Source of the DNA: Candidatus Omnitrophota bacterium
GTDB taxonomy: Bacteria; Omnitrophota; Gorgyraeia; Gygaellales; Profunditerraquicolaceae
Length of the DNA: 64,000 nucleotides
Reading direction: 5' to 3'
Assembly (NCBI GenBank): GCA_035402765.1
Contig: DAONDX010000007.1
Location: 14,281-78,280, forward strand
The position numbers and the translations under genes are program-made. Shown here piece by piece: positions 2 through 40,499 of this stretch. Within the stretch, counting starts at the first letter, position 1, and each line of letters starts with the position of its first letter. The notes below the pieces were generated by a model. It ran no database searches. It had not been told where the DNA came from and worked only from the letters and a program-made list of their open reading frames with translations.

Positions 2-1729
2 ACCCGCAGGCTTGTGGATGTTGCTCAGGAAGTTATTGTCTGCGAAGAAGATTGCGGTACGCTCAACGGTATTACGGTCTCGGCGATCATGGAAGGTGAC
101 GAGGAAGTCGTGGCCTTAAAAGACCGGATTATCGGAAGAGTTGCCCTGGATAACGTCGTGGATATTATTACCGACGAAGTAATTATTGAACAAGGTTGTG
201 AAATAACTGAAGAAAAAACCGATCAAATCGAAAAATTAGGAATCGAGAAAATTCGTATTCGCAGCGTATTAACTTGCGAGAGCGGAAGAGGAGTTTGCGC
301 TAAATGTTATGGCCGCAATCTTTCTACCGGCAGATTAATCGAGTTGGGAGAGGCCGTTGGTGTGGTGGCTGCTCAAAGTATCGGAGAACCCGGTACCCAG
401 TTAACCATGAGAACTTTCCATATTGGTGGTACTGCTTCCAGAACGATTGAGCAGTCATTTATTAAATCTAAAAATGAAGGTTTTATTAAGTTCCATAGTT
501 TGAGAGTTACGCTGAAAAATAAAGAATATGTAGTTTTGAACCGTAACGGAGCGATCAGTATCAATGACGCGCAAGGACGTGAATTTGAGCGTTATTCGCT
601 TCCGCAGGGTGCTTTCATTAGTTTTGCTGACGGCTCGGAAGTTAAAAAAGGAGTTTCTTTAGTCCATTGGGATCCGTATACTTTGCCCGTGCTTACTGAA
701 GTAGCCGGCGGAGTGCGTTTTGAAGATCTGCGTGATAATGTCACGATGCGTGAAGAGGTTAATCCGGTTACGAAATTAACCGAGCGCGTAGTGGTTGAGC
801 ACAAGCCGGAGTATCATCCGCAAGTAGTTATTTTGGATGAGAAAAAAGAAGTTTTAGGAATTTATCCTATTCCGATCGGTGCGCACATTATTGTTAAAGA
901 CGGTGATCAGGTAGGCGGAGGAGATCTCCTGGCAAAAATTCCGCGCAGCGTAGTTAAGACCCGGGATATTACCGGAGGTTTACCGCGCGTAGCTGAACTT
1001 TTCGAGGCCCGCCGTCCGAAGGATCCGGCAGTGATCAGTGAAATTGACGGATTTGTGGAATTTGGCGAAACTAAGAAGAATCAACGCGTGATCATCGTCA
1101 AGTCCGCCACCGGTATGGCCAGAGAATATATTATTCCTCACGGCAAACACCCGAATGTTTATAAGGGTGATAAAGTATCGGCCGGACAGCAGCTTACCGA
1201 CGGTCCGGTGGTCTTACAGGATATTTTAAGTGTTTGCGGCGATAAAGTCCTGCAGGAATACTTGGTCAATGAAGTACAGGAAGTTTATCGTTTGCAGGGC
1301 GTGCGGATTAATGATAAACATATCGAAGTAATTATCCGTCAGATGTTGAAAAAAGTAAGAGTAGAAGATCCGGGTGATACGGAGTTCTTGGCTACGCAGC
1401 AGGTGGATAAATGGGTGTTCCAGAAAGAAAACACCCGGGTGATCAAAAAAGGCGGCAAGCCCGCTCAAGCTACGCCCCTGCTTTTAGGTATTACCAAGGC
1501 TTCCCTTACCACTGAAAGTTTTATTTCCGCAGCTAGTTTCCAGGAGACTACCCGGGTTTTAACGGAAGCTGCCACAAGCGGTAAACGTGATGAATTATTT
1601 GGTTTAAAAGAAAATGTTATCGTCGGGCACTTGATTCCGGCAGGTACCGGATTCCGGGCGCACCGCGATATTGAGGTAGTTAAAGTAGCCGCGCAAGAAA
1701 GCGCAGAAAAGAAAGAAGAAAAGGAATAA
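2..1729 (+). CDS. rpoC: DNA-directed RNA polymerase beta' subunit, C-terminal part (5'-truncated by window edge)
   Basis: Frame open to the window start. The translation TRRLVDVAQEV...GEPGTQLTMRTFHIGG matches the conserved beta' region and ends with a Lys/Glu-rich tail. It is followed by rpsL as in the canonical rpoBC-str arrangement. Confidence 0.9.
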   Translation, partial: TRRLVDVAQEVIVCEEDCGTLNGITVSAIMEGDEEVVALKDRIIGRVALDNVVDIITDEVIIEQGCEITEEKTDQIEKLGIEKIRIRSVLTCESGRGVCAKCYGRNLSTGRLIELGEAVGVVAAQSIGEPGTQLTMRTFHIGGTASRTIEQSFIKSKNEGFIKFHSLRVTLKNKEYVVLNRNGAISINDAQGREFERYSLPQGAFISFADGSEVKKGVSLVHWDPYTLPVLTEVAGGVRFEDLRDNVTMREEVNPVTKLTERVVVEHKPEYHPQVVILDEKKEVLGIYPIPIGAHIIVKDGDQVGGGDLLAKIPRSVVKTRDITGGLPRVAELFEARRPKDPAVISEIDGFVEFGETKKNQRVIIVKSATGMAREYIIPHGKHPNVYKGDKVSAGQQLTDGPVVLQDILSVCGDKVLQEYLVNEVQEVYRLQGVRINDKHIEVIIRQMLKKVRVEDPGDTEFLATQQVDKWVFQKENTRVIKKGGKPAQATPLLLGITKASLTTESFISAASFQETTRVLTEAATSGKRDELFGLKENVIVGHLIPAGTGFRAHRDIEVVKVAAQESAEKKEEKE

Positions 1730-9390: not shown

Positions 9391-10116
9391 ATGGGTCATA
9401 AGGTAAGTCCTTTATTATTAAGGATTGGTTTTATTAGACAGTGGCACTCGCGTTGGTTTGCTAAGCCGAAAGATTTCGCGCTTTTTATACAGCAGGATTT
9501 TAAGATCAGGAAATTTATTAAAAGTAAATTTAAGCAAGCCGCGATTTCTAAGATCGTGATCGAACGTTTAGCGGAAAAAATTAAGGTCCGTATATTTTCG
9601 GCCCGTCCGGGAATTATTATCGGCCGTCACGGTTCAGATATCGAACGCCTGCGTTCGGATTTGAACGGTTTGGTTAAGAACGAGATTTCTATCGATATTC
9701 AGGAGGTGAATAATCCTACCTGGGATGCGCAATTGGTGGCGGAAAATATCGCTTTGCAGCAGGAAAAGAGAATTGCTTTTCGCCGCGCGGTAAAAAGAGC
9801 AATGGAGCAATCAATGCAATCCGGGGTAAAAGGTATCCGGGTCAGCTGTTCCGGCCGTCTTAATGGCGCGGAAATGGGGCGTAAAGAAACATATAAGATG
9901 GGGAGCGTTCCTTTGCAAACTTTACGTGCAGATATTGATTATGGTTTTGCCGAAGCCCTGACTACTTATGGTTTAATCGGAGTTAAGGTTTGGATCTATA
10001 AGGGTGATATCCTAGGAAAACAATTTATTCAGGAAGATATTAAGCCTGTTCAACAGCAGCAGGGTTCCAGAGAAACAGCTCGGCCGGCACGGCCGCATCA
10101 AGACGCTCCGCGCTAA
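9391..10116 (+). CDS. rpsC: 30S ribosomal protein S3
   Basis: MGHKVSPLLLRIGFIRQWHSRWFA is the S3 N-terminus (KH domain), 241 aa with an R/Q-rich tail. Confidence 0.95.
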   Translation: MGHKVSPLLLRIGFIRQWHSRWFAKPKDFALFIQQDFKIRKFIKSKFKQAAISKIVIERLAEKIKVRIFSARPGIIIGRHGSDIERLRSDLNGLVKNEISIDIQEVNNPTWDAQLVAENIALQQEKRIAFRRAVKRAMEQSMQSGVKGIRVSCSGRLNGAEMGRKETYKMGSVPLQTLRADIDYGFAEALTTYGLIGVKVWIYKGDILGKQFIQEDIKPVQQQQGSRETARPARPHQDAPR

Positions 10117-10207
10117 TTGGAATTGCGCGCGTGTTGGTTAGGTAGACAAGACACCCAACGCCAAGCGGAATTGCGTTGGTGTTGTTTAGGTAGACAAGGA
10201 GTATATA
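10117..10207 (+). repeat. repeat family A copy 1: structured 5' leader element upstream of rplP
   Basis: GACAAG-ACACCCAACGC-loop-GCGTTGGTGT-..-GACAAGGAG-ATG. An internal tandem duplication of a ~31-nt unit (ggaattgcg...ttaggtagacaag) is present. Confidence 0.6.
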
Positions 10208-11100: not shown

Positions 11101-11469
11101 ATGCTTCAACTACGCAGTATTTTTGATGTGGCAGATAACACCGGGGCACGCCGTGCTTCCCTGATTTGTGTTTTAAAAAAGATGGGTAGTTTTAATGCCG
11201 ATATCGGTGATATTATTAAAGTGAATATTAAAGAATCTATCCCGGGGGCTACGGTGAAAAAAGGCGAGAAGGCCCGGGCAGTGATTGTGCGTACAAGGCA
11301 TGATATCAGAAGAGCTGATGGATCGATCTTGCGTTTTGACCGCAATGCTATCGTAATTATCGACGATAAAGATAATCCGCGCGGTACCCGGGTATTCGGA
11401 CCGGTAGCCCGCGAATTAAGAGATAAGAATTTTAATAAAATAATTTCATTAGCACCCGAGGTAATTTAA
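11101..11469 (+). CDS. rplN: 50S ribosomal protein L14
   Basis: [17 protein letters not shown] is the L14 N-terminus, 122 aa. Confidence 0.96.
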
Positions 11470-11780
11470 TGCAAAAAATAAAGAAGAATGACATTGTTCA
11501 AATAACCAAAGGGAAAGATAAAGGCAAACAGGGCAAGGTAATCAGTATTATTGAAGACGGTGCGCGTGCCATAGTGGAAGGTTTGAATTTATCCAAAAAG
11601 CACAAACGCCAGAGCCGCCAGGATCAGAAGGGCGGGATAATCTCAATCGAAATGCCGATTTCAATTTCAAATCTTATGATTTTCTGTAAGCATTGTTCTA
11701 AACCGGCCCGGGTTGGTTCAATGGTTTTAAAAGACGGGACCAAAACCAGATTTTGCAAAGCTTGCAAAGAAGCATTATAA
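11469..11780 (+). CDS. rplX: 50S ribosomal protein L24, variant with a Cys4 (CxxC...CxxC) motif in the C-terminal region
   Basis: N-terminal KOW region (IKKNDIVQITKGKDKGKQGKV). The C-terminal part reads FCKHCSKPARVGSMVLKDGTKTRFCKACKE, aligning with [29 protein letters not shown] of E. coli L24. Confidence 0.93.
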   Translation: MQKIKKNDIVQITKGKDKGKQGKVISIIEDGARAIVEGLNLSKKHKRQSRQDQKGGIISIEMPISISNLMIFCKHCSKPARVGSMVLKDGTKTRFCKACKEAL

Positions 11781-11838: not shown

Positions 11839-12396
11839 ATGGTACCTAGACTATTAGAAAAATATCGCAATGAAATTGTTCCCAAGCTGATGAGTGATTT
11901 TAAGCTGAAGAATAAAATGGCTGTGCCGGTTATTGATAAAGTTGTAGTGAATATGGGTATCGGCGAAGGAACTCAGGATATCAAAGTGCTGGAAAAGTCG
12001 GTTGAAGAATTAGGCAATATTACCGGGCAGAAACCGCTTATCCGGCGGGCCAAAAAAGCGATTGCTAATTTTAAAGTCAGGCAAGGGCAGGCTGTGGGGG
12101 CTAAGGTTACTTTAAGAAGAGCGATGATGTATGAGTTTGTCGATCGTTTACTGAATATCGCTTTGCCCCGGATCCGTGATTTCCGCGGGGTGCCCAGGGA
12201 TTCTTTCGATAAAGGTAATAATTATACTTTAGGCTTAAGCGAGCAGATCATTTTCCCGGAGATCGAATATGATAAAATTACCCGCACGCAGGGTATGGAT
12301 ATTACTTTTGTTATTAAAAATGCCAAGAATACTGATCAGGCAAGGGCTTTGCTGAAATATTTTGGCATGCCTTTTAAAGAGAAGGAAGATAAATAA
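11839..12396 (+). CDS. rplE: 50S ribosomal protein L5
   Basis: 185 aa in the L5 position of the spc operon; NPMLVPRIEKV-like region. Confidence 0.94.
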   Translation: MVPRLLEKYRNEIVPKLMSDFKLKNKMAVPVIDKVVVNMGIGEGTQDIKVLEKSVEELGNITGQKPLIRRAKKAIANFKVRQGQAVGAKVTLRRAMMYEFVDRLLNIALPRIRDFRGVPRDSFDKGNNYTLGLSEQIIFPEIEYDKITRTQGMDITFVIKNAKNTDQARALLKYFGMPFKEKEDK

Positions 12397-12399
12397 AAA

Positions 12400-12585
12400 A
12401 TGGCAAAGAATTCGCAAATTGCAAGATGGAAAAGGCCGGCAAAGTTTTCTACCCGTAAATATAATCGTTGTTCGATTTGCGGCAGAAGCGGCGGCTATTT
12501 GAGAAGATTTCAACTCTGCCGTATTTGTTTCAGAGAGTTGGTTTGGCAAGGATTAATTCCGGGTATTAAGAAGGCCAGCTGGTAG
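12400..12585 (+). CDS. rpsZ: 30S ribosomal protein S14 type Z (zinc-binding)
   Basis: 61 aa with [10 protein letters not shown]...CRICFREL, the C+ short S14 form. Confidence 0.95.
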
Positions 12586-14075: not shown

Positions 14076-14528
14076 ATGCGTGAATTAAACATAGGACAGC
14101 AATCGGATTTAATCGAAAAAGTTATCAGTATAAACCGCGTTACCAAAGTAACTAAAGGCGGTAAAAAATTGCATTTTAGCGCGCTCGTTGTGGTCGGCGA
14201 TACTAAAGGCAGGGTAGGTTTTGCCCTGGATAAAGCTAATGAAGTTGCCGAAGCTATACGCAAGTCTCTAACTAAAGCTAAGAAAAGCCTGTTTAAGGTT
14301 CCTCTGGAAGGGTCTACTATTCCTCATGAAGTAGTCGGAAAATTCGGAGCCGCATCAGTAATGTTAAAACCGGCATCAGAAGGAACAGGTGTTATTGCGG
14401 CAGGTCCGGTGCGCGCAATCTGTGAAGCTGCCGGGATCAAAGATATTCTCACGAAGTGTTTAAAATCAAATAATCCGATTAATGTTATTAAAGCTACGAT
14501 GCAAGGTTTAAAGGACCTGAAGGCCTAA
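14076..14528 (+). CDS. rpsE: 30S ribosomal protein S5
   Basis: 150 aa; [21 protein letters not shown] is S5-like. Confidence 0.95.
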
Positions 14529-14534
14529 AATAAA

Positions 14535-15089
14535 ATGAAAGAAAAAAAATCTAGCGTAAAGACAACCGTTAAAAAATCAGCAGTTAAGCCTCACCTAAAA
14601 ACGGCAGCTGTGAAAAAAGAACAAGAAGTAAAATCGGTTAAGCTGGTTGATTTATCTAACCTTAAACGTCCGTTTGGTTCGCACAAAAAGAGAAAATATC
14701 TTGGGCGGGGTTCCAGTTCCGGTCACGGAAAGACTTCTACCCGGGGCAGCAAAGGGCAGACCTCCCGGGCTGGCAGGCATTTTTACTTAGGGTTTGAAGG
14801 AGGACAATCTCCCCTTATCCGTAAAATGCCTAAACGCGGTTTTGTGAGTAATTATAAGAAAGTTTATCAAATTGTTAATCTTGAATCTTTAAATTCTATT
14901 AAAGAAACTACAATTACGCCCCTTATTTTAAAAGCAAATGGTTTAATCCGTAATGAGTCGGCCTTAATTAAAATATTAGGAAAAGGCTCTATTAAAAATG
15001 CGGTGACGGTCCAGGCGCATGTTTTTTCTAAGCGAGCGTCTGTTGAGATTGTCAATGCCGGTGGAAAAGCAGAAATAATCAATGTTTAA
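14535..15089 (+). CDS. rplO: 50S ribosomal protein L15 with a ~35-aa Lys-rich N-terminal extension (no L30 gene between rpsE and rplO)
   Basis: 184 aa. The core RGSSSGHGKTSTRGSKGQ..GFEGGQSPLIRKMPKRGF matches L15 but starts ~35 residues in. The rpsE stop lies only 6 nt upstream. Confidence 0.9.
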   Translation: MKEKKSSVKTTVKKSAVKPHLKTAAVKKEQEVKSVKLVDLSNLKRPFGSHKKRKYLGRGSSSGHGKTSTRGSKGQTSRAGRHFYLGFEGGQSPLIRKMPKRGFVSNYKKVYQIVNLESLNSIKETTITPLILKANGLIRNESALIKILGKGSIKNAVTVQAHVFSKRASVEIVNAGGKAEIINV

Positions 15090-16428
15090 TGCACTGGTCA
15101 ATGCTTTTAAGATTCCAGATTTAAAAAGACGATTAATCATTACCGGTGCCCTGATTGCGGTTTACCGTATAGGTTGTTATATTCCTACTCCCGGGATTGA
15201 CGGGTCAGCGCTGGCGGATTTCTTTAATCGGATTGCTAAAACTCAAGGCGGTACGCTCTTTGGTATAATTAATATGTTCTCCGGAGGCGCAATGGAACGT
15301 TTAACCATTTTCGCCCTGGGGATTATGCCGTATATCTCATCTTCGATTATTATGCAGTTACTTACCGCGGTGATCCCGGCTTTTGAAAAAATGGCCAAGG
15401 AAGGTAAGTCTGGATATGAGAAGATCAACCAGTTTACGCGCTATGGAACGGTTCTGCTTTCGGTTATCCAGTCATACTTTATTGCTCTCTGGCTGGAAAA
15501 TCCGGCCCGTTTTGAAGGATTGCAGATTGTTATGCATCCGGGTTGGGGATTCCGGATTTTAACGGTGCTTACGCTGACTACCGGAACGATTTTTATCATG
15601 TGGCTGGGTGAACAGATCCAGGAGCGCGGGATCGGCAACGGTATTTCTTTAATCATTACCGCCGGTATTATTTCGCGTATTCCCACAGCGATCAATCAGC
15701 TTTTTGTTTTGATTTCTCCGCTGGATGCCAGCCGCCGGCAGATCCAGCCGGTTACTTTATTAATTATGGCGGTTTTGCTGGGGGTGGTGGTTTTTTCGGT
15801 AATTTTAATTACTCAGGGTTTGAGAAAGATCCCCGTGCAATATGCCCGGCGGATTGTAGGCCGTAAAATTTATGGCGGCCAAAGTACTTATATCCCGCTT
15901 AAAGTAGATACTTCCGGAGTAATCGCGATTATCTTCGCGCAGTCGATTATTTTATTTCCGGCGACTCTGGCTTCTTTTATCCCTAATCCGGGTTTTCAGC
16001 GTTTTGCGCAGAGTCTGATCCGGGGACAGGTTTTATATTCGGTAGTTTATGCTCTTTTGATAATTTTCTTTTGTTATTTTTATACCGCGATCGTTTTTAA
16101 TCCTAACGATCTGGCCGAAAATATGAAAAAGTACGGCGGGTTTATACCCGGGATCCGGCCGGGGGCACCTACAGCGGAATTTCTAGACTTTGTGATGACC
16201 AGGATTACTCTAGCCGGGTCAAGTTTTATTGCCGTGATTGCGATCTTTCCGGATTTTATTATGGCTTGGCTAAAGGTTCCATATCTAGTGGCTTCCTTTT
16301 TTGGAGGCACCGGGGTTTTGATTATTGTGGGCGTGATGCTGGATACTTTAAAACAGATCGAGTCCCATTTATTGACGCATCACTACGAAGGTTTTATCAA
16401 GAGCGGGCAAATCAGAGGGAGAAGATAA
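15082..16428 (+). CDS. secY: protein translocase subunit SecY
   Basis: 448 aa, 10-TM polytopic protein at the conserved position after rplO. Confidence 0.95.
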   Translation: MFNALVNAFKIPDLKRRLIITGALIAVYRIGCYIPTPGIDGSALADFFNRIAKTQGGTLFGIINMFSGGAMERLTIFALGIMPYISSSIIMQLLTAVIPAFEKMAKEGKSGYEKINQFTRYGTVLLSVIQSYFIALWLENPARFEGLQIVMHPGWGFRILTVLTLTTGTIFIMWLGEQIQERGIGNGISLIITAGIISRIPTAINQLFVLISPLDASRRQIQPVTLLIMAVLLGVVVFSVILITQGLRKIPVQYARRIVGRKIYGGQSTYIPLKVDTSGVIAIIFAQSIILFPATLASFIPNPGFQRFAQSLIRGQVLYSVVYALLIIFFCYFYTAIVFNPNDLAENMKKYGGFIPGIRPGAPTAEFLDFVMTRITLAGSSFIAVIAIFPDFIMAWLKVPYLVASFFGGTGVLIIVGVMLDTLKQIESHLLTHHYEGFIKSGQIRGRR

Positions 16429-17078
16429 TGTATTTAGTGCTATTAGGTCCTCCGGGAGCAGGCAAAGGTACTCAGGCTAAAAGATTGGCTGAAAAGCTGG
16501 GTCTGCCGCATATTTCCACCGGGGATATTTTAAGACAGAACGTTAAAGATGATACCTCGCTAGGTAGGCAGGCCAAAGACATTATGGAAAAAGGATTATT
16601 GGTGCCGGATGATTTGGTCGCCAAAATGCTGGATGAACGTTTTAATAACCCGGATATAAAAAAAGGTTTTATTTTAGACGGTTATCCCAGGACTTTACCT
16701 CAAGCGTTTTCTTTGGATGAGATTTTAACCGTTAAAGGTTTAGCCGTGGATTTGGTAGTTTATTTGGATAGCAGCGACCAAGTAATTATTAAGCGGCTTA
16801 CGGGGAGATTAGTTTGTTCCAAATGCGGAGCCAATTTTCATGTTACAAATATGCCTCCCAAAGTCAAGGGCATCTGTGATAGCTGCCAAGGAACATTGTA
16901 TCAACGTTCTGATGATAATGAAATAACGGTGCGTAAGCGCCTGGAAGTTTATAAACAGCAAGTCGCTTCTTTGATAGAGTATTACAAAAAAGCCGGGAAA
17001 CTTTATAGTCTAAACGCGGATTTAGGTGCGGAAGTGGTTTTGAAACAGATTATTGAGTTAAGCGGCAAAATTAAATGA
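16428..17078 (+). CDS. adk: adenylate kinase (Zn-lid form)
   Basis: MYLVLLGPPGAGKGTQA P-loop and a CSKCGANFH...CDSCQ zinc lid. The start overlaps the secY stop (TAATG). The ORF-track 5' extension into secY is spurious. Confidence 0.95.
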   Translation: MYLVLLGPPGAGKGTQAKRLAEKLGLPHISTGDILRQNVKDDTSLGRQAKDIMEKGLLVPDDLVAKMLDERFNNPDIKKGFILDGYPRTLPQAFSLDEILTVKGLAVDLVVYLDSSDQVIIKRLTGRLVCSKCGANFHVTNMPPKVKGICDSCQGTLYQRSDDNEITVRKRLEVYKQQVASLIEYYKKAGKLYSLNADLGAEVVLKQIIELSGKIK

Positions 17079-18214: not shown

Positions 18215-18328
18215 ATGAAAGTTAAAGCTTCAATTCGTAAAATTTGCGACAAGTGTAAAATAATCAAGAGAAGAGGAGTGGTGCGGGTAATTTGCGTTAC
18301 CACTAAACATAAACAGAGACAAGGATAA
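18215..18328 (+). CDS. rpmJ: 50S ribosomal protein L36 (zinc-ribbon form)
   Basis: Not in the ORF track (37 aa): [37 protein letters not shown], starting 1 nt after the infA stop. Confidence 0.9.
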
Positions 18329-18434
18329 ATAACGCCCCGCGCTAAATTGTTTGGCGCGAAGGTTATATTGATGACAAGACACCCAGCGTTAAATATAATT
18401 GCGTTGGTGTTGTCCTCGCGGACAAGGAGTAGAC
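18329..18434 (+). repeat. repeat family A copy 2: structured 5' leader element upstream of rpsM
   Basis: GACAAG-ACACCCAGCG-loop-AATTGCGTTGGTGTTGT-..-GACAAGGAG. Same stem as copy 1 with an A->G change read as A-U to G.U, and a different loop. Confidence 0.6.
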
Positions 18435-18848
18435 ATGCCAAGGATTATCGGTATTGATATACCTAAAGAAAAAAGAATTGAAATAGCTTTGACTTATTTG
18501 TATGGGATAGGGAGAGCCCAATCCAATATCGTATTAAAAGAAGCCGGCATCAGTCCGTCTAAACGGGCTAAGGATTTAAGCGAAGAAGAAGTTTCGCGGA
18601 TCACGCAGATCTTGCAAAAAGAAGGATCTTTGAGGATTGAAGGCGATCTGCGGCGTGATATTTCTCAGAATATCAAGCGTCTTATGGATATTGGTTCTTG
18701 GAGAGGAATGCGCCATAAAAAAGGGCTGCCGGTGAGAGGGCAGCGTACGCGGACAAATGCGCGTACCAGAAAAGGAAAGAAAAGATCAACTCAGGCCCCG
18801 GTGATTAAAAAAGCTGAAGCGCCAAAGGCTAAGGCTCCAGCTAAATAA
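18435..18848 (+). CDS. rpsM: 30S ribosomal protein S13
   Basis: [26 protein letters not shown]. The start at the ATG at 18435 has a GGAG SD. The ORF-track upstream extension is spurious. Confidence 0.95.
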
Positions 18849-19263: not shown

Positions 19264-19893
19264 ATGGCTCGCTATATTGGTGCAGTTTGCAGGTTATGCC
19301 GTAGACAGGGAGAAAAACTGTTTTTAAAAGGAACTAAATGCCAGACTGAAAAATGTGCCGCGGCTAAAAGAGCTTATCCGCCGGGTCAGCATGGTCAGGG
19401 CCGCAGGCAGAAACTTTCTAACTACGGAACACAGTTGAAAGAAAAACAAAAAGTTAAAAGAATTTACGGAGTATTGGAAAGACAATTCCGTAAATATTTC
19501 GAAGTTGCTTCTAAAACTAAAGGGGTAACCGGTAAGGTGCTTTTACAATTATTGGAGCGCCGCCTGGATAATGTGGTTTTTCGTATGGGGCTGGGTATTT
19601 CAAGAGCACAGGCCCGTCAGATTGTCAGGCATAACTTGATCGCGGTCAATTCCTGCCGAGTCAATATTCCATCGTACTTGGTGGATAAAGATGATGTGGT
19701 TGAGGTAAAAGCTAAAGATAAAGCCAAGATTAAAATCAAGGATAATCTGGAGCTGGCTAAAGAAAGGACCGTTCCTGCTTGGCTTGAATTTAATGCTGCG
19801 GAGATGAAGGGAAAAGTTTTAAGGCTTCCGGAAAAAGGCGATATTCAGCAGCCGATCCAGGAGCAGTTGATCGTCGAGTTGTATTCCAAGTAA
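19264..19893 (+). CDS. rpsD: 30S ribosomal protein S4 (N-terminal Zn-binding Cys cluster)
   Basis: 209 aa; [31 protein letters not shown]. Confidence 0.95.
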
Positions 19894-34554: not shown

Positions 34555-34564
34555 GGTTATTAGG

Positions 34565-34725
34565 TTAACGTTGCTGGTTTAGGGAAGGCCGTGTAAATCG
34601 GTCGCAGTTCCCGCTGCTGTAAAAGAGGTCGAAATTCTCTCGTGAGTTTGCCACTGGTTTAACAAAACCGGGAAGGCTAAAGAGAAGAGTAGGTTAGACT
34701 CTTAAGTCAGAAGACCTGATCGGCA
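34565..34725 (+). promoter_or_regulatory. cobalamin (AdoCbl) riboswitch aptamer
   Basis: tAGGGAAggccGTGtAAATCgGtCGCaGttCCCGCtGCTGTAA core, GCCACTG..GGGAAGGC element and B12-box-like AGTCAGAAGACCTGATC. Located immediately 5' of the BtuB-like receptor. Confidence 0.85.
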
Positions 34726-34789
34726 ACACTTGTCCAACTATTACTTTTAAATCCGCGGACAGATTTAAAAGGGTTAGAAACAGGGATAA

Positions 34790-34831
34790 CCCTTAATGCT
34801 TTTAATTAAAGCGTTAAGGGTTTTTTGTTTT
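34790..34831 (+). terminator. intrinsic terminator (riboswitch expression platform)
   Basis: 13-bp stem CCCTTAATGCTTT / AAAGCGTTAAGGG with a 5-nt loop, followed by TTTTTTGTTTT, ~28 nt upstream of the btuB-like ATG. Confidence 0.7.
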
Positions 34832-34858
34832 ATGCGGGTCCGAGAAAATGGAGAAAAG

Positions 34859-36904
34859 ATGTTTGGCCAGAAGCCGGTAAAGAAGTGTTTAGTTCTGTGG
34901 TTGTTGATTTTATGTCCTGCTGCTTATGTTTATGCCGGGGATGTGGAATTAGATAAAATTGTTGTAACTCCTTACCGTTACGGTGAAAGTTTGACTAAAA
35001 CTGCCGCTGAAATTAGCGTGGTAACGCAAGAAGACATAGAAGTATCGAGCGCACAAAATGTAGTGGATGTATTAAGAACGCTTCCCGGGATTACTGTAAA
35101 GGATTATTATGGCAATGGAACTAAGGTCGCTGTTGATATGGGCGGTTTTGGTGAACAGGCGCCTCTTAATGTATTAGTGCTTGTGGATGGAAGGCGTATA
35201 AATAATATTGATTTAAGCGGTGTTGATTGGAGCCAGGTTCCTTTGGACCGGGTGGAGCGTATTGAGGTTGTACACGGGGGCGCAGGAGCAGTATTATACG
35301 GAGATAACGCTTCCAGCGGTGTAGTCAATATCATTACAAAAAAAGGATCAGGTAAGCTTGCGGTAAATTTAGAAGCTGAATACGGTAGTTATGCGTTGAA
35401 CAAACAAAAGCTTTCTTTGGGCGGAAGTATCGATAATAAATTTTCGTATTGGTTAAGTGGCAGCCGGGAATCGACTAATGGATATCGCAGCAATAGTTTT
35501 AATGAAGCCAAAGATTTTTCTTCAAAATTCACCTATGATTTTACGGACATCTTATCCGTTCATTTTGATTCCGGGTTTCATGCTGCGACCTACGGCATGC
35601 CCGGAGCGCTTTATCAGAGTAATATAGATCAGTATAATAGAAGGTATGCCAGATTTAGCGATGACCATGCTAAAGGCAAAGATTATTATTTTCTTATTGG
35701 TTCGAAAAGTAATTTTACAGAAGCAGGTGAATTTGATATTGATTTCAACTACCGGATTAAAGATATGGAATCATATTTTTTGAGTTCCGGCTTAGATACT
35801 CAGAAAACCACGATTAAGACCTTCGGAGTTAATCCTAAATATACTTTAGATAATACTATTTTTGATCATCAGAACAAATTAATTGCCGGGGTTGATTTTT
35901 ATCGGTCTTTATATAGTTCTAAAACGTATCTTATTACTAACGAACAGCTGAATCAGCATACCAATACTAATAAGAATTCGTTTGGCAGCTATTTACAAGA
36001 TGAATTTTCGATCTCTAAGAAATTAGTCTTAATTGCCGGGTACCGTTATGAACTGGCGCGGTATGCTTTTGGTTATCATGATAATGATCTTCATGGATAT
36101 GGACAAAACCCGGATCTTGACAATAAAGTAAAGCCGAGTATGAACGCTTTTAACAGCGGGTTAGCCTATAATTATCAAGATAATTCTAATATTTTTATAA
36201 GTGTCGGTAAAAGTTTCCGTTTCCCTGAGGTAGACGAATTTACTTATGTGGATAATAATTATCAACAGCAGCTTAATACGGATCTAGAGCCTCAGTCTTC
36301 TATAGATTATCAGGCAGGCCTGCGGCACAAGTTTTCTGATCAGGTCAAAGGGACTTTGACGGTATTCAGAAAAAACGTAAAAAATGAACTTTATTATAAT
36401 GCTCAGGATGCTTTGGTCTGGGGCTATTGGAACGGGAAGAATTCTAACTATGATAAGACAGTCCATGAAGGTTTGGAGTGCTCGCTTGAGACAAAGCTTT
36501 GCAGCTGGGTAAATTGGTTCGGTAACTATACTTATACTAATGCATATTTTGACGGAGGCCAATATAACAAAAACGAAATACCTTTAGCCGCCAGGCATAA
36601 AGGAAGTATGGGTTTAAAATTTACATTGCCGATGAATATAGCTTTTAACATTATCGGAACTTATGTCGGCCCGAGGTATTACTTAAATGACCAGGCTAAT
36701 GCTTATTCTAAAATAAATGGATATATGGTTGCTGATACTAATCTATCTTGGTGTCACAAAGATTTTAAGGTAACTTTTAGTATCAATAATTTATTTGGTA
36801 AGCAATATTCTGAATACGCCGGAGTCAGCGTAGACAGCGGGTTAAAATTTTATTATCCTAACCCGGAAAGAAATTTTAGTTTAAAAGCTAGCTATTCTTT
36901 TTAG
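34859..36904 (+). CDS. btuB: TonB-dependent outer-membrane receptor (BtuB-like)
   Basis: Signal peptide (MFGQKPVKKCLVLWLLILCPAAYVYA), TonB box DKIVVTP, plug and 22-strand barrel, C-terminal aromatic (SYSF). The ATG at 34859 is preferred; the ORF-track 5' extension covers the terminator. Confidence 0.85.
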   Translation: MFGQKPVKKCLVLWLLILCPAAYVYAGDVELDKIVVTPYRYGESLTKTAAEISVVTQEDIEVSSAQNVVDVLRTLPGITVKDYYGNGTKVAVDMGGFGEQAPLNVLVLVDGRRINNIDLSGVDWSQVPLDRVERIEVVHGGAGAVLYGDNASSGVVNIITKKGSGKLAVNLEAEYGSYALNKQKLSLGGSIDNKFSYWLSGSRESTNGYRSNSFNEAKDFSSKFTYDFTDILSVHFDSGFHAATYGMPGALYQSNIDQYNRRYARFSDDHAKGKDYYFLIGSKSNFTEAGEFDIDFNYRIKDMESYFLSSGLDTQKTTIKTFGVNPKYTLDNTIFDHQNKLIAGVDFYRSLYSSKTYLITNEQLNQHTNTNKNSFGSYLQDEFSISKKLVLIAGYRYELARYAFGYHDNDLHGYGQNPDLDNKVKPSMNAFNSGLAYNYQDNSNIFISVGKSFRFPEVDEFTYVDNNYQQQLNTDLEPQSSIDYQAGLRHKFSDQVKGTLTVFRKNVKNELYYNAQDALVWGYWNGKNSNYDKTVHEGLECSLETKLCSWVNWFGNYTYTNAYFDGGQYNKNEIPLAARHKGSMGLKFTLPMNIAFNIIGTYVGPRYYLNDQANAYSKINGYMVADTNLSWCHKDFKVTFSINNLFGKQYSEYAGVSVDSGLKFYYPNPERNFSLKASYSF

Positions 36905-36980: not shown

Positions 36981-37175
36981 ATGCCCGAATATATCTGCCC
37001 GTACTGTAAAAAGCCGATTAACGATGACGAGGCTTTACTTTGCCTTTACTGCGGGGAAAGTCTTAACCGGCCAGTAGGGCTTATGGGGAAGTTAAAATAC
37101 CTCAAGCCTAAAATCATCATGGTAATTATCGTGGTTTTGGTATTATTCAGTTTTATGGTTTTAATGTTAAGGTAG
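36981..37175 (+). CDS. small membrane-anchored zinc-ribbon protein
   Basis: 64 aa; CPYCKKPIN...CLYCGE followed by one TM helix. Confidence 0.5.
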   Translation: MPEYICPYCKKPINDDEALLCLYCGESLNRPVGLMGKLKYLKPKIIMVIIVVLVLFSFMVLMLR

Positions 37176-37230: not shown

Positions 37231-37965
37231 ATGATTACCGATCACCTATTAGGTTTGACTTTAGCTATCTCCATTTTTATCCACGCAGGGGTGCTTTTAC
37301 AGAGTACCGGGTTTAATCCGTTTGTCCCCACGCCTAAGCTCCAAAAAATAGCCGTGCGTTATATTAAAAAAAATCCCCAAGTTCAATCTTTGCCTAGAAG
37401 GGTGATTGATCCGGGCAGAGAGAGGTTAATGCCTAAAACTGAACCGTTTCTAAAGCTTGATGCTGAAATGGGCGCCGGCCTGCGGCGCGCTCCTTTGCCT
37501 TATATTGAACCTGCCGATACTGCTTCAGCTTCTGCGGTTTCCACTAAAGCACTGCTGAATGAAGCGTTGCCGAATAAGTCTGTGGAATTTTCTAAGCCTG
37601 TTTTTGCCAGTTCTGAAATAATGGCAATTAAGAAAAAGATCACCTTACCGGCAATCGAGATGGCCAAGATCAATAACCCCAGCTATATAAGCTACTACCA
37701 GATTGTCAGGGAGAAGATCCGCCGCAGCGCTTATCAAAACTATACGCATAATGTAACCGGCGAAGTTTACGTTTCTTTTATCATTTCTAACGAGGGTTAT
37801 ATAAAAGATGTGCGTTTAGTTGAGGAGAAGACCACGGTCAATGATTATTTAAAAAATATTGCTTTAAGGAGCGTCAGAGACGCCTCGCCTTTTCCAAATT
37901 TTCCCAAAGAGCTTGATTATCCGCAGTTATCTTTTAACATCATAATTTCTTTTGAAATAGAGTAA
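37231..37965 (+). CDS. TonB-family energy transducer (C-terminal TonB domain)
   Basis: N-terminal TM anchor and a C-terminal domain (GEVYVSFIISNEGYIKDVRLVEEK...) consistent with the TonB C-terminal domain. Confidence 0.65.
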   Translation: MITDHLLGLTLAISIFIHAGVLLQSTGFNPFVPTPKLQKIAVRYIKKNPQVQSLPRRVIDPGRERLMPKTEPFLKLDAEMGAGLRRAPLPYIEPADTASASAVSTKALLNEALPNKSVEFSKPVFASSEIMAIKKKITLPAIEMAKINNPSYISYYQIVREKIRRSAYQNYTHNVTGEVYVSFIISNEGYIKDVRLVEEKTTVNDYLKNIALRSVRDASPFPNFPKELDYPQLSFNIIISFEIE

Positions 37966-39999: not shown

Positions 40000-40347
40000 A
40001 TGGATGAGATAAAAAAGAAGGTTGATGAAAATTGGAAGCAGAGTGTTGAAAAAGAAAAATTGCAGCCCAAAGTTCCGGGTGAGATGGTCCCCCCGGAGCC
40101 GGATTTTAAATTTTTTATAACTACTCTTACTTTGCAGGCATCAATTGCCCTGGGGCATATGGCAAATCCGGCTACCGGTAAGACCGAGGAAGACCCCGCT
40201 CAGGCAAAATTCCTGATTGATACTTTAGGCATGCTTCAGGAAAAAACCAAGGGTAATCTTACTCAGGAAGAAATGGATCTTTTTGAAAATTTATTATACG
40301 AATTAAGGGTGGCTTATTTGGCCAAGAAGGATCAACAGGCGAAATGA
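40000..40347 (+). CDS. DUF1844-like small conserved protein
   Basis: 115 aa; the FFITTLTLQASIALGHMANPATGK...LIDTLGMLQEKTKGNLTQEE pattern. Confidence 0.55.
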   Translation: MDEIKKKVDENWKQSVEKEKLQPKVPGEMVPPEPDFKFFITTLTLQASIALGHMANPATGKTEEDPAQAKFLIDTLGMLQEKTKGNLTQEEMDLFENLLYELRVAYLAKKDQQAK

Positions 40348-40499
40348 TTGATAAAGAACTATTAGCTATCCTGGCTTGTCCGGCTTGCCAGGGGGATGTG
40401 GAATTAATCAAGGATAAAATTGTTTGTAAAAAATGCGGTAAAAAATACCCGGTACGCCGGGGAATTCCGGTAATGTTAGTGGATGAAGCGGAAGATTAG
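40344..40499 (+). CDS. Trm112-family zinc-ribbon protein
   Basis: Not in the ORF track (51 aa): [21 protein letters not shown]...[26 protein letters not shown] overlap with the upstream gene. Confidence 0.8.

Follow-up and report, generated by a model that had tools for sequence, protein, structure and literature searches.

A four-cysteine ribosomal protein uL24 in Omnitrophota corresponds to the described C+ isoform and most likely binds zinc

The window analysed here, a stretch of 64,000 nucleotides (64 kb) from a Candidatus Omnitrophota genome, contains a short open reading frame whose product ends in two CxxC pairs and lies between two ribosomal protein genes. Is this product a genuine ribosomal protein L24 (uL24), and do its four cysteines make a metal site that is new to the protein? 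uL24 is a single-copy, early-assembly protein that binds 23S rRNA, in domain I, at the rim of the exit tunnel and nucleates assembly of the 50S subunit. The list of ribosomal proteins with C+ and C- versions drawn up by Makarova, Ponomarev and Koonin in 2001 reportedly comprises uS14, bS18, bL28, bL31, bL32, bL33 and bL36, with uL24 absent.

The uL24 gene and its surroundings

The reading frame occupies the slot expected for rplX in the spc operon (Table 1). Its ATG start codon overlaps the stop codon of rplN (TAATG), and the host cluster is a complete str-S10-spc-alpha array (rpoC', rpsL, rpsG, fusA, tuf and rpsJ through to rplQ). The product scores 112.5 bits against the NCBIfam profile TIGR01079 (rplX_bact, cutoff 53.7), a full-length match that places residues 1–102 on profile positions 1–103 of 104. 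Pfam recognizes both ribosomal_L24 (PF17136, 80.7 bits) and KOW (PF00467, 33.7 bits), and dozens of solved uL24 chains match the protein in a comparison with PDB sequences (E 1e-20 to 1e-9). These family matches bear out the L24 identity that had been proposed in an earlier, sequence-only reading of the window.

Table 1. Positions of the features discussed, numbered from the first nucleotide of the window
Feature	Position	Strand	Evidence or remark
uS3	9391..10116		ORF translation only
rpsC–rplP spacer with repeated element	10107..10207
rplN (uL14)	11101..11469	+	ORF list; directly 5' of rplX
rplX, uL24 C+ (Cys4) isoform, 103 aa	11469..11780	+	TIGR01079, Pfam, predicted fold
First knuckle, C73-K-H-C76	11685..11696	+	End of strand 69–73 and next turn; equivalent to T. 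thermophilus C76-P-A-C79; codons C73 11685–11687, C76 11694–11696
Second knuckle, C96-K-A-C99	11754..11765	+	End of strand 92–96 and next turn; equivalent to T. thermophilus C99-A-K-C102; codons C96 11754–11756, C99 11763–11765
rplE (uL5)	11839..12396		ORF list; 3' neighbour of rplX
rpsN, type Z (short, Cys4) uS14, CSIC...CRIC	12400..12585	+	NF005974, 102.3 bits, cutoff 77
rpsE–rplO region	14076..15089		rpsE ends at 14528, rplO starts at 14535
adk, Cys4 lid CSKC-x16-CDSC	16428..17078	+	NF001380, 282.9 bits, profile positions 1–211
rpmJ, bL36, CxxC...CxxxxH (CDKC...C....H)	18215..18328	+	TIGR01022, 68.9 bits
rpmJ–rpsM spacer with repeated element	18335..18437
rpsD, uS4, N-terminal C9xxC12...C26xxxxC31	19264..19893	+	NF003717, 275 bits
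bL17, 189 aa	20940..21509		ORF translation only
Cobalamin riboswitch and TonB-dependent receptor	34558..36904		RF00174, 79.9 bits; Plug and beta-barrel, 702 aa
Membrane-anchored zinc-ribbon ORF	36981..37175
TonB_C protein (weak match)	37231..37965
Trm112-like protein, 51 aa, CPAC...CKKC	40344..40499		PF03966, 40.1 bits

Two spacers of the ribosomal protein cluster carry an element of ~95 nt, present in two copies only in the window. Common to both are the blocks CGCGCTAA(A)TTG..GCGCG, GACAAGACACCCA[A/G]CG, AATTGCGTTGGTGTTGT and GACAAGGAGTA, the last followed by ATG, and ACACCCAACG pairs with CGTTGGTGT immediately 5' of the Shine-Dalgarno sequence. Upstream of rplP, a related hairpin region is also found in the closest relatives, L001 (JAZDLL010000070.1) and L002, where base changes look compensatory (ACACCCGGCGC/GCGCCGGTGT); more distant Omnitrophota are without the spacer. 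Folding z-scores of the intergenic hairpins are weak (-1.3 to -2.6), and an Rfam search with the repeated hairpins found neither a ribosomal protein leader nor any other family. The element could be a lineage-specific hairpin for processing or translational control, or a small palindromic insertion.

The cluster has further peculiarities. The rpmD gene (L30) is absent between rpsE and rplO, and uL15 of the window has a Lys-rich N-terminal extension of ~39 residues, with TIGR01071 matching residues 40–179 only. The arrangement recurs in 10 of the 13 Omnitrophota loci in which rpsE was located (region downstream of rpsE in L001–L014): the gene for uL15, Lys-rich at its extended N-terminus, comes immediately after rpsE. 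Protein uS3 has a Gln/Pro/Arg-rich terminal tail (…QQQQGSRETARPARPHQDAPR), and bL17 a long Lys/Glu-rich C-terminal extension. Far from the ribosomal genes, a cobalamin riboswitch immediately precedes the gene for a TonB-dependent receptor, in what is probably a B12 uptake locus; 3' of the receptor are the membrane-anchored zinc-ribbon ORF and then the TonB_C protein. The Trm112-like protein is unrelated to the ribosome cluster.

The four cysteines and their relatives

The translated rplX ends in NLMIFCKHCSKPARVGSMVLKDGTKTRFCKACKEAL and contains four cysteines in total (C73, C76, C96 and C99) in the pattern CxxC-x19-CxxC. In an alignment with the E. coli and T. thermophilus proteins (A2, in which the E. 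coli C-terminus was confirmed against PDB 10qm_c), they stand opposite N, T, F and N of E. coli IFNAATGK...RFFKSN; the two CxxC pairs do replace the E. coli segment FNAATG...RFFKSN, as had been noted from the sequence. All four columns are invariant in a 36-sequence alignment (A1). Among the 120 closest protein clusters (79–94% identity), 119 keep all four cysteines at a spacing of exactly 19, the exception (P0028) carrying C76Y, and the two residues inside the knuckles occur in 19 combinations. The motif is not a matter of chance because the cysteines and their spacing are kept while the residues between them vary, a pattern of purifying selection on the thiols themselves.

An AlphaFold2 model of the window uL24, built from the 36-sequence alignment, is of moderate confidence (mean pLDDT 73, pTM 0.60) and contains strands at residues 69–73, 78–80, 82–86 and 92–96. 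In this model, the first cysteine of each CxxC is the final residue of its strand and the second lies in the turn that follows, a predicted placement that matches the geometry of zinc knuckles. A Foldseek comparison with the PDB returned uL24 chains only, from many ribosomes (probability 1.00, TM 0.61–0.71), including 7azo and chain 4v8a_AY of Thermus thermophilus (TM 0.69).

The T. thermophilus protein (10px_1Y, 4v8a_AY and the 4Y4Y series), from the ribosome that serves as the crystallographic standard, belongs to TIGR01079 as well, has the same fold, occupies the same operon slot between rplN and rplE, and carries the same CxxC-x19-CxxC motif. Its sequence is 100% identical to PDB chain 10px_1Y and is the same in 267 PDB entries. 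The phmmer alignment with the window protein has no gaps and a constant offset of +3, and C76, C79, C99 and C102 of T. thermophilus fall in the alignment columns of C73, C76, C96 and C99 (A2). The two proteins differ in that they are only 39% identical, the window protein is without the C-terminal DTEE tail of its counterpart, and its host is an uncultured Omnitrophota lineage and apparently no thermophile. Van den Elzen et al. 2023 (NAR 51:8048, PMC10450194), the one paper whose text is the source for zinc in Thermus uL24, place the protein among the Zn2+-coordinating ribosomal proteins of Thermus, define its C+ isoform as (CXXC)-(CXXC), a pattern that C73xxC76-x19-C96xxC99 of the window fits, and score it in 2021 bacterial species. 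Since T. thermophilus structures carry the motif and the 2023 survey scored C+ uL24, the novelty that the sequence-only reading had implied does not hold; the four cysteines mark the window protein as a member of the already known C+ form of uL24, for which zinc binding is reported.

With each species represented by one genome, a scan found C+ uL24 at 15 of 15 Omnitrophota loci, whose products are 61–96% identical to that of the window, L001 being the best. Outside the phylum, the scan found C+ loci in Saccharibacteria/Patescibacteria, Oscillospiraceae, Lachnospiraceae, Spirochaetaceae/Treponema, Selenomonadaceae/Veillonellaceae, Coriobacteriales and one Bacillota MAG, with Selenomonas artemidis and Pseudoflavonifractor capillosus as cultured examples, and C- loci in Streptomyces, Solirubrobacterales, Conexibacter and one Bdellovibrionales MAG; this list of taxa is biased to C+ because some of the scan patterns contained the Cys knuckles. 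Among representatives of distinct 50%-identity clusters there were 5720 matches, and of the best 150 of these, 127 have a CxxC-(11..26)-CxxC pattern, many with the canonical zinc-knuckle signature CPxCG/CKKCG; the sample of 150 is enriched in C+ forms because the query itself is C+. Despite the C+ bias of both samples, they show a motif that is spread very widely among bacteria and is frequent in mesophiles. A motif both widespread and previously described is what the sequence-only reading itself had named as a refutation of its proposal.

Depending on the lineage, uL24 either has or lacks a Cys4 knuckle pair. In this it resembles the small ribosomal proteins of the classic C+/C- pairs, and, as in those pairs, the loss of the cysteines is repeated across lineages (e.g. 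Streptomyces, Bdellovibrionales and E. coli). Unlike in the classic pairs, a paralogous C- copy or a Zur-controlled switch was not found for uL24, either in the window or in the literature searched. The eukaryotic homologue of the bacterial protein is uL24/L26, not eL24. Archaeal/eukaryotic eL24 (L24e) shares the 'L24' name and a Cys4 zinc site (PMC4999995), but its TRASH/treble-clef zinc finger is unrelated to bacterial uL24 in family and fold. Most of the literature retrieved on 'L24 + zinc' deals with this finger, a naming trap, or with herpesvirus UL24, and both are irrelevant here; searches for uL24 with cysteines, for L24 with the 2001 C+/C- list and for Omnitrophota with zinc returned nothing useful.

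The probable metal site

Of the nine known metal-type ribosomal proteins, four lie in the window and all are C+, while bL28, bL31, bL32, bL33 and bS18 are absent from its 64 kb. The bL36 is of the ordinary CxxC...CxxxxH form, and the Cys pattern of uS4 agrees with the C+ definition of this protein in PMC10450194. The adk reading frame, as listed from position 16266, is over-extended and has its true start at 16428. The sequence-only reading took uS14, bL36, uS4 and the Adk lid for zinc forms and spoke of a zinc-rich translation apparatus. That type Z uS14, bL36, uS4 and the Adk lid are Cys-rich is confirmed, and 'Cys-rich' is a fair description of the apparatus; 'zinc' is unsafe for uS4, because the Cys cluster of T. 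thermophilus uS4 is reported to hold Fe4S4 and not zinc (PMC10450194).

We read the gene as an ordinary Omnitrophota rplX for a C+ uL24, in which, by homology with T. thermophilus, the two CxxC pairs most likely bind one structural Zn2+. The knuckles would be located at the tips of the C-terminal β-hairpins, and their four thiolates would coordinate the ion tetrahedrally, as Zn(Cys)4, in the manner reported for the Thermus protein. The zinc would thereby cross-brace the two hairpins of the small C-terminal domain. In C- lineages, side-chain packing has taken the place of the metal, and in species such as E. coli the domain folds metal-free. For Omnitrophota, we infer from the Thermus site which metal is bound, that the site is occupied and that the metal stabilizes the protein, and positional homology to the Thermus ligands makes the zinc-ribbon-like site suggested in the sequence-only reading plausible.

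Pairs of CxxC...CxxC knuckles also define rubredoxin-type iron sites, and the source organism is uncultured and probably anaerobic. The four cysteines of uL24 might then hold iron, as a rubredoxin-like Fe(Cys)4 centre or an Fe-S cluster, and uS4 of the window has the same Cys cluster as the Fe4S4-bearing uS4 of Thermus. We nevertheless consider iron unlikely, given that the homologous site in T. thermophilus uL24 is reported as Zn2+ (PMC10450194) and that CPxCG/CKKCG knuckles, frequent in the homologues, are typical of zinc ribbons. A different role for zinc itself is conceivable, in which C+ uL24, and with it the ribosome, serves as a zinc reservoir and a Zur-regulated C- paralogue takes over when the cell is starved of zinc, as happens with bL31, bL36, bS18 and uS14. 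Such a swap is established for other ribosomal proteins (PMC10931766, PMC10450194), and the uniformly C+ state of the four metal-type proteins in the window would suit it; however, no C- paralogue of uL24 was found in the literature searched, and the 64-kb window contains no second rplX, C- or otherwise, and no other small Cys-less ribosomal protein paralogue, its other small Cys4 ORFs being only the Trm112-like and the membrane zinc-ribbon proteins. The single-copy, early-assembly nature of uL24 also counts against such an exchange, which makes it very unlikely here.

The C- uL24 of E. coli folds and works without the cysteines, and the close relative P0028 has lost one of them, as would be expected if they played no part in metal binding and were either a disulfide pair or a relic free of metal. 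This reading is contradicted by the conservation of the four cysteines, both in 119 of 120 relatives in which adjoining residues drift and at the same four columns across many phyla. Disulfides in the cytoplasm are unlikely as well, and the probability of a metal-free function is, in our view, minimal. A structural zinc ion held by the two knuckles is thus the reading we prefer.

Host lineage and growth temperature

All named matches to the window uL24 are MAGs titled 'Candidatus Omnitrophica/Omnitrophota bacterium', and one of the 15 Omnitrophota loci carries the label 'Planctomycetales'. The uL24 of this last MAG (L006, CAZQGT010000029.1, under the title 'uncultured Planctomycetales bacterium') is 86% identical to that of the window and is found among the Omnitrophota matches; the record is probably taxonomically mis-assigned. 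Isolate names of the relatives, such as CG11_big_fil and nzgw297, point to groundwater-type sources. The IVYWREL fraction over the 79 ORFs of the window is 0.40, which by Zeldovich's formula corresponds to roughly 39–41 °C, a weak and crude proteome proxy taken here from 64 kb only. The source organism is apparently mesophile-like and not thermophile-like.

The survey of cultured species, in which Omnitrophota are absent (PMC10450194, Table S2), describes the uL24 metal site as becoming 'immutable' only at optimal growth temperatures of at least 80 °C and notes low-temperature 'outliers'. Its lineage table also contains mesophilic groups rich in C+ proteins (Acidobacteria 7.3, Elusimicrobia 6 and Kiritimatiellaeota 6). 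An invariant site in an apparently mesophilic phylum argues against reading C+ uL24 as a marker of thermophily. If the all-C+ pattern holds genome-wide, retention of the four cysteines might be explained by ancestry instead of temperature, with life in anaerobic or metal-rich niches as a possible further factor, a suggestion that we put forward tentatively.

On its own, the C+ uL24 of Omnitrophota is of small importance. It adds this phylum to the lineages with the isoform and corrects the impression that uL24 stands outside the metal-binding set of bacterial ribosomal proteins. Together with the C+ uL24 of other mesophiles (Selenomonas, Centipeda, Pseudoflavonifractor, Treponema and Patescibacteria), it tempers the use of the protein as a thermophily marker. 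Should retention of the cysteines indeed follow ancestry or niche, a 'molecular thermometer' based on counting C+ ribosomal proteins would wrongly place uncultured phyla, Omnitrophota and Patescibacteria among them.
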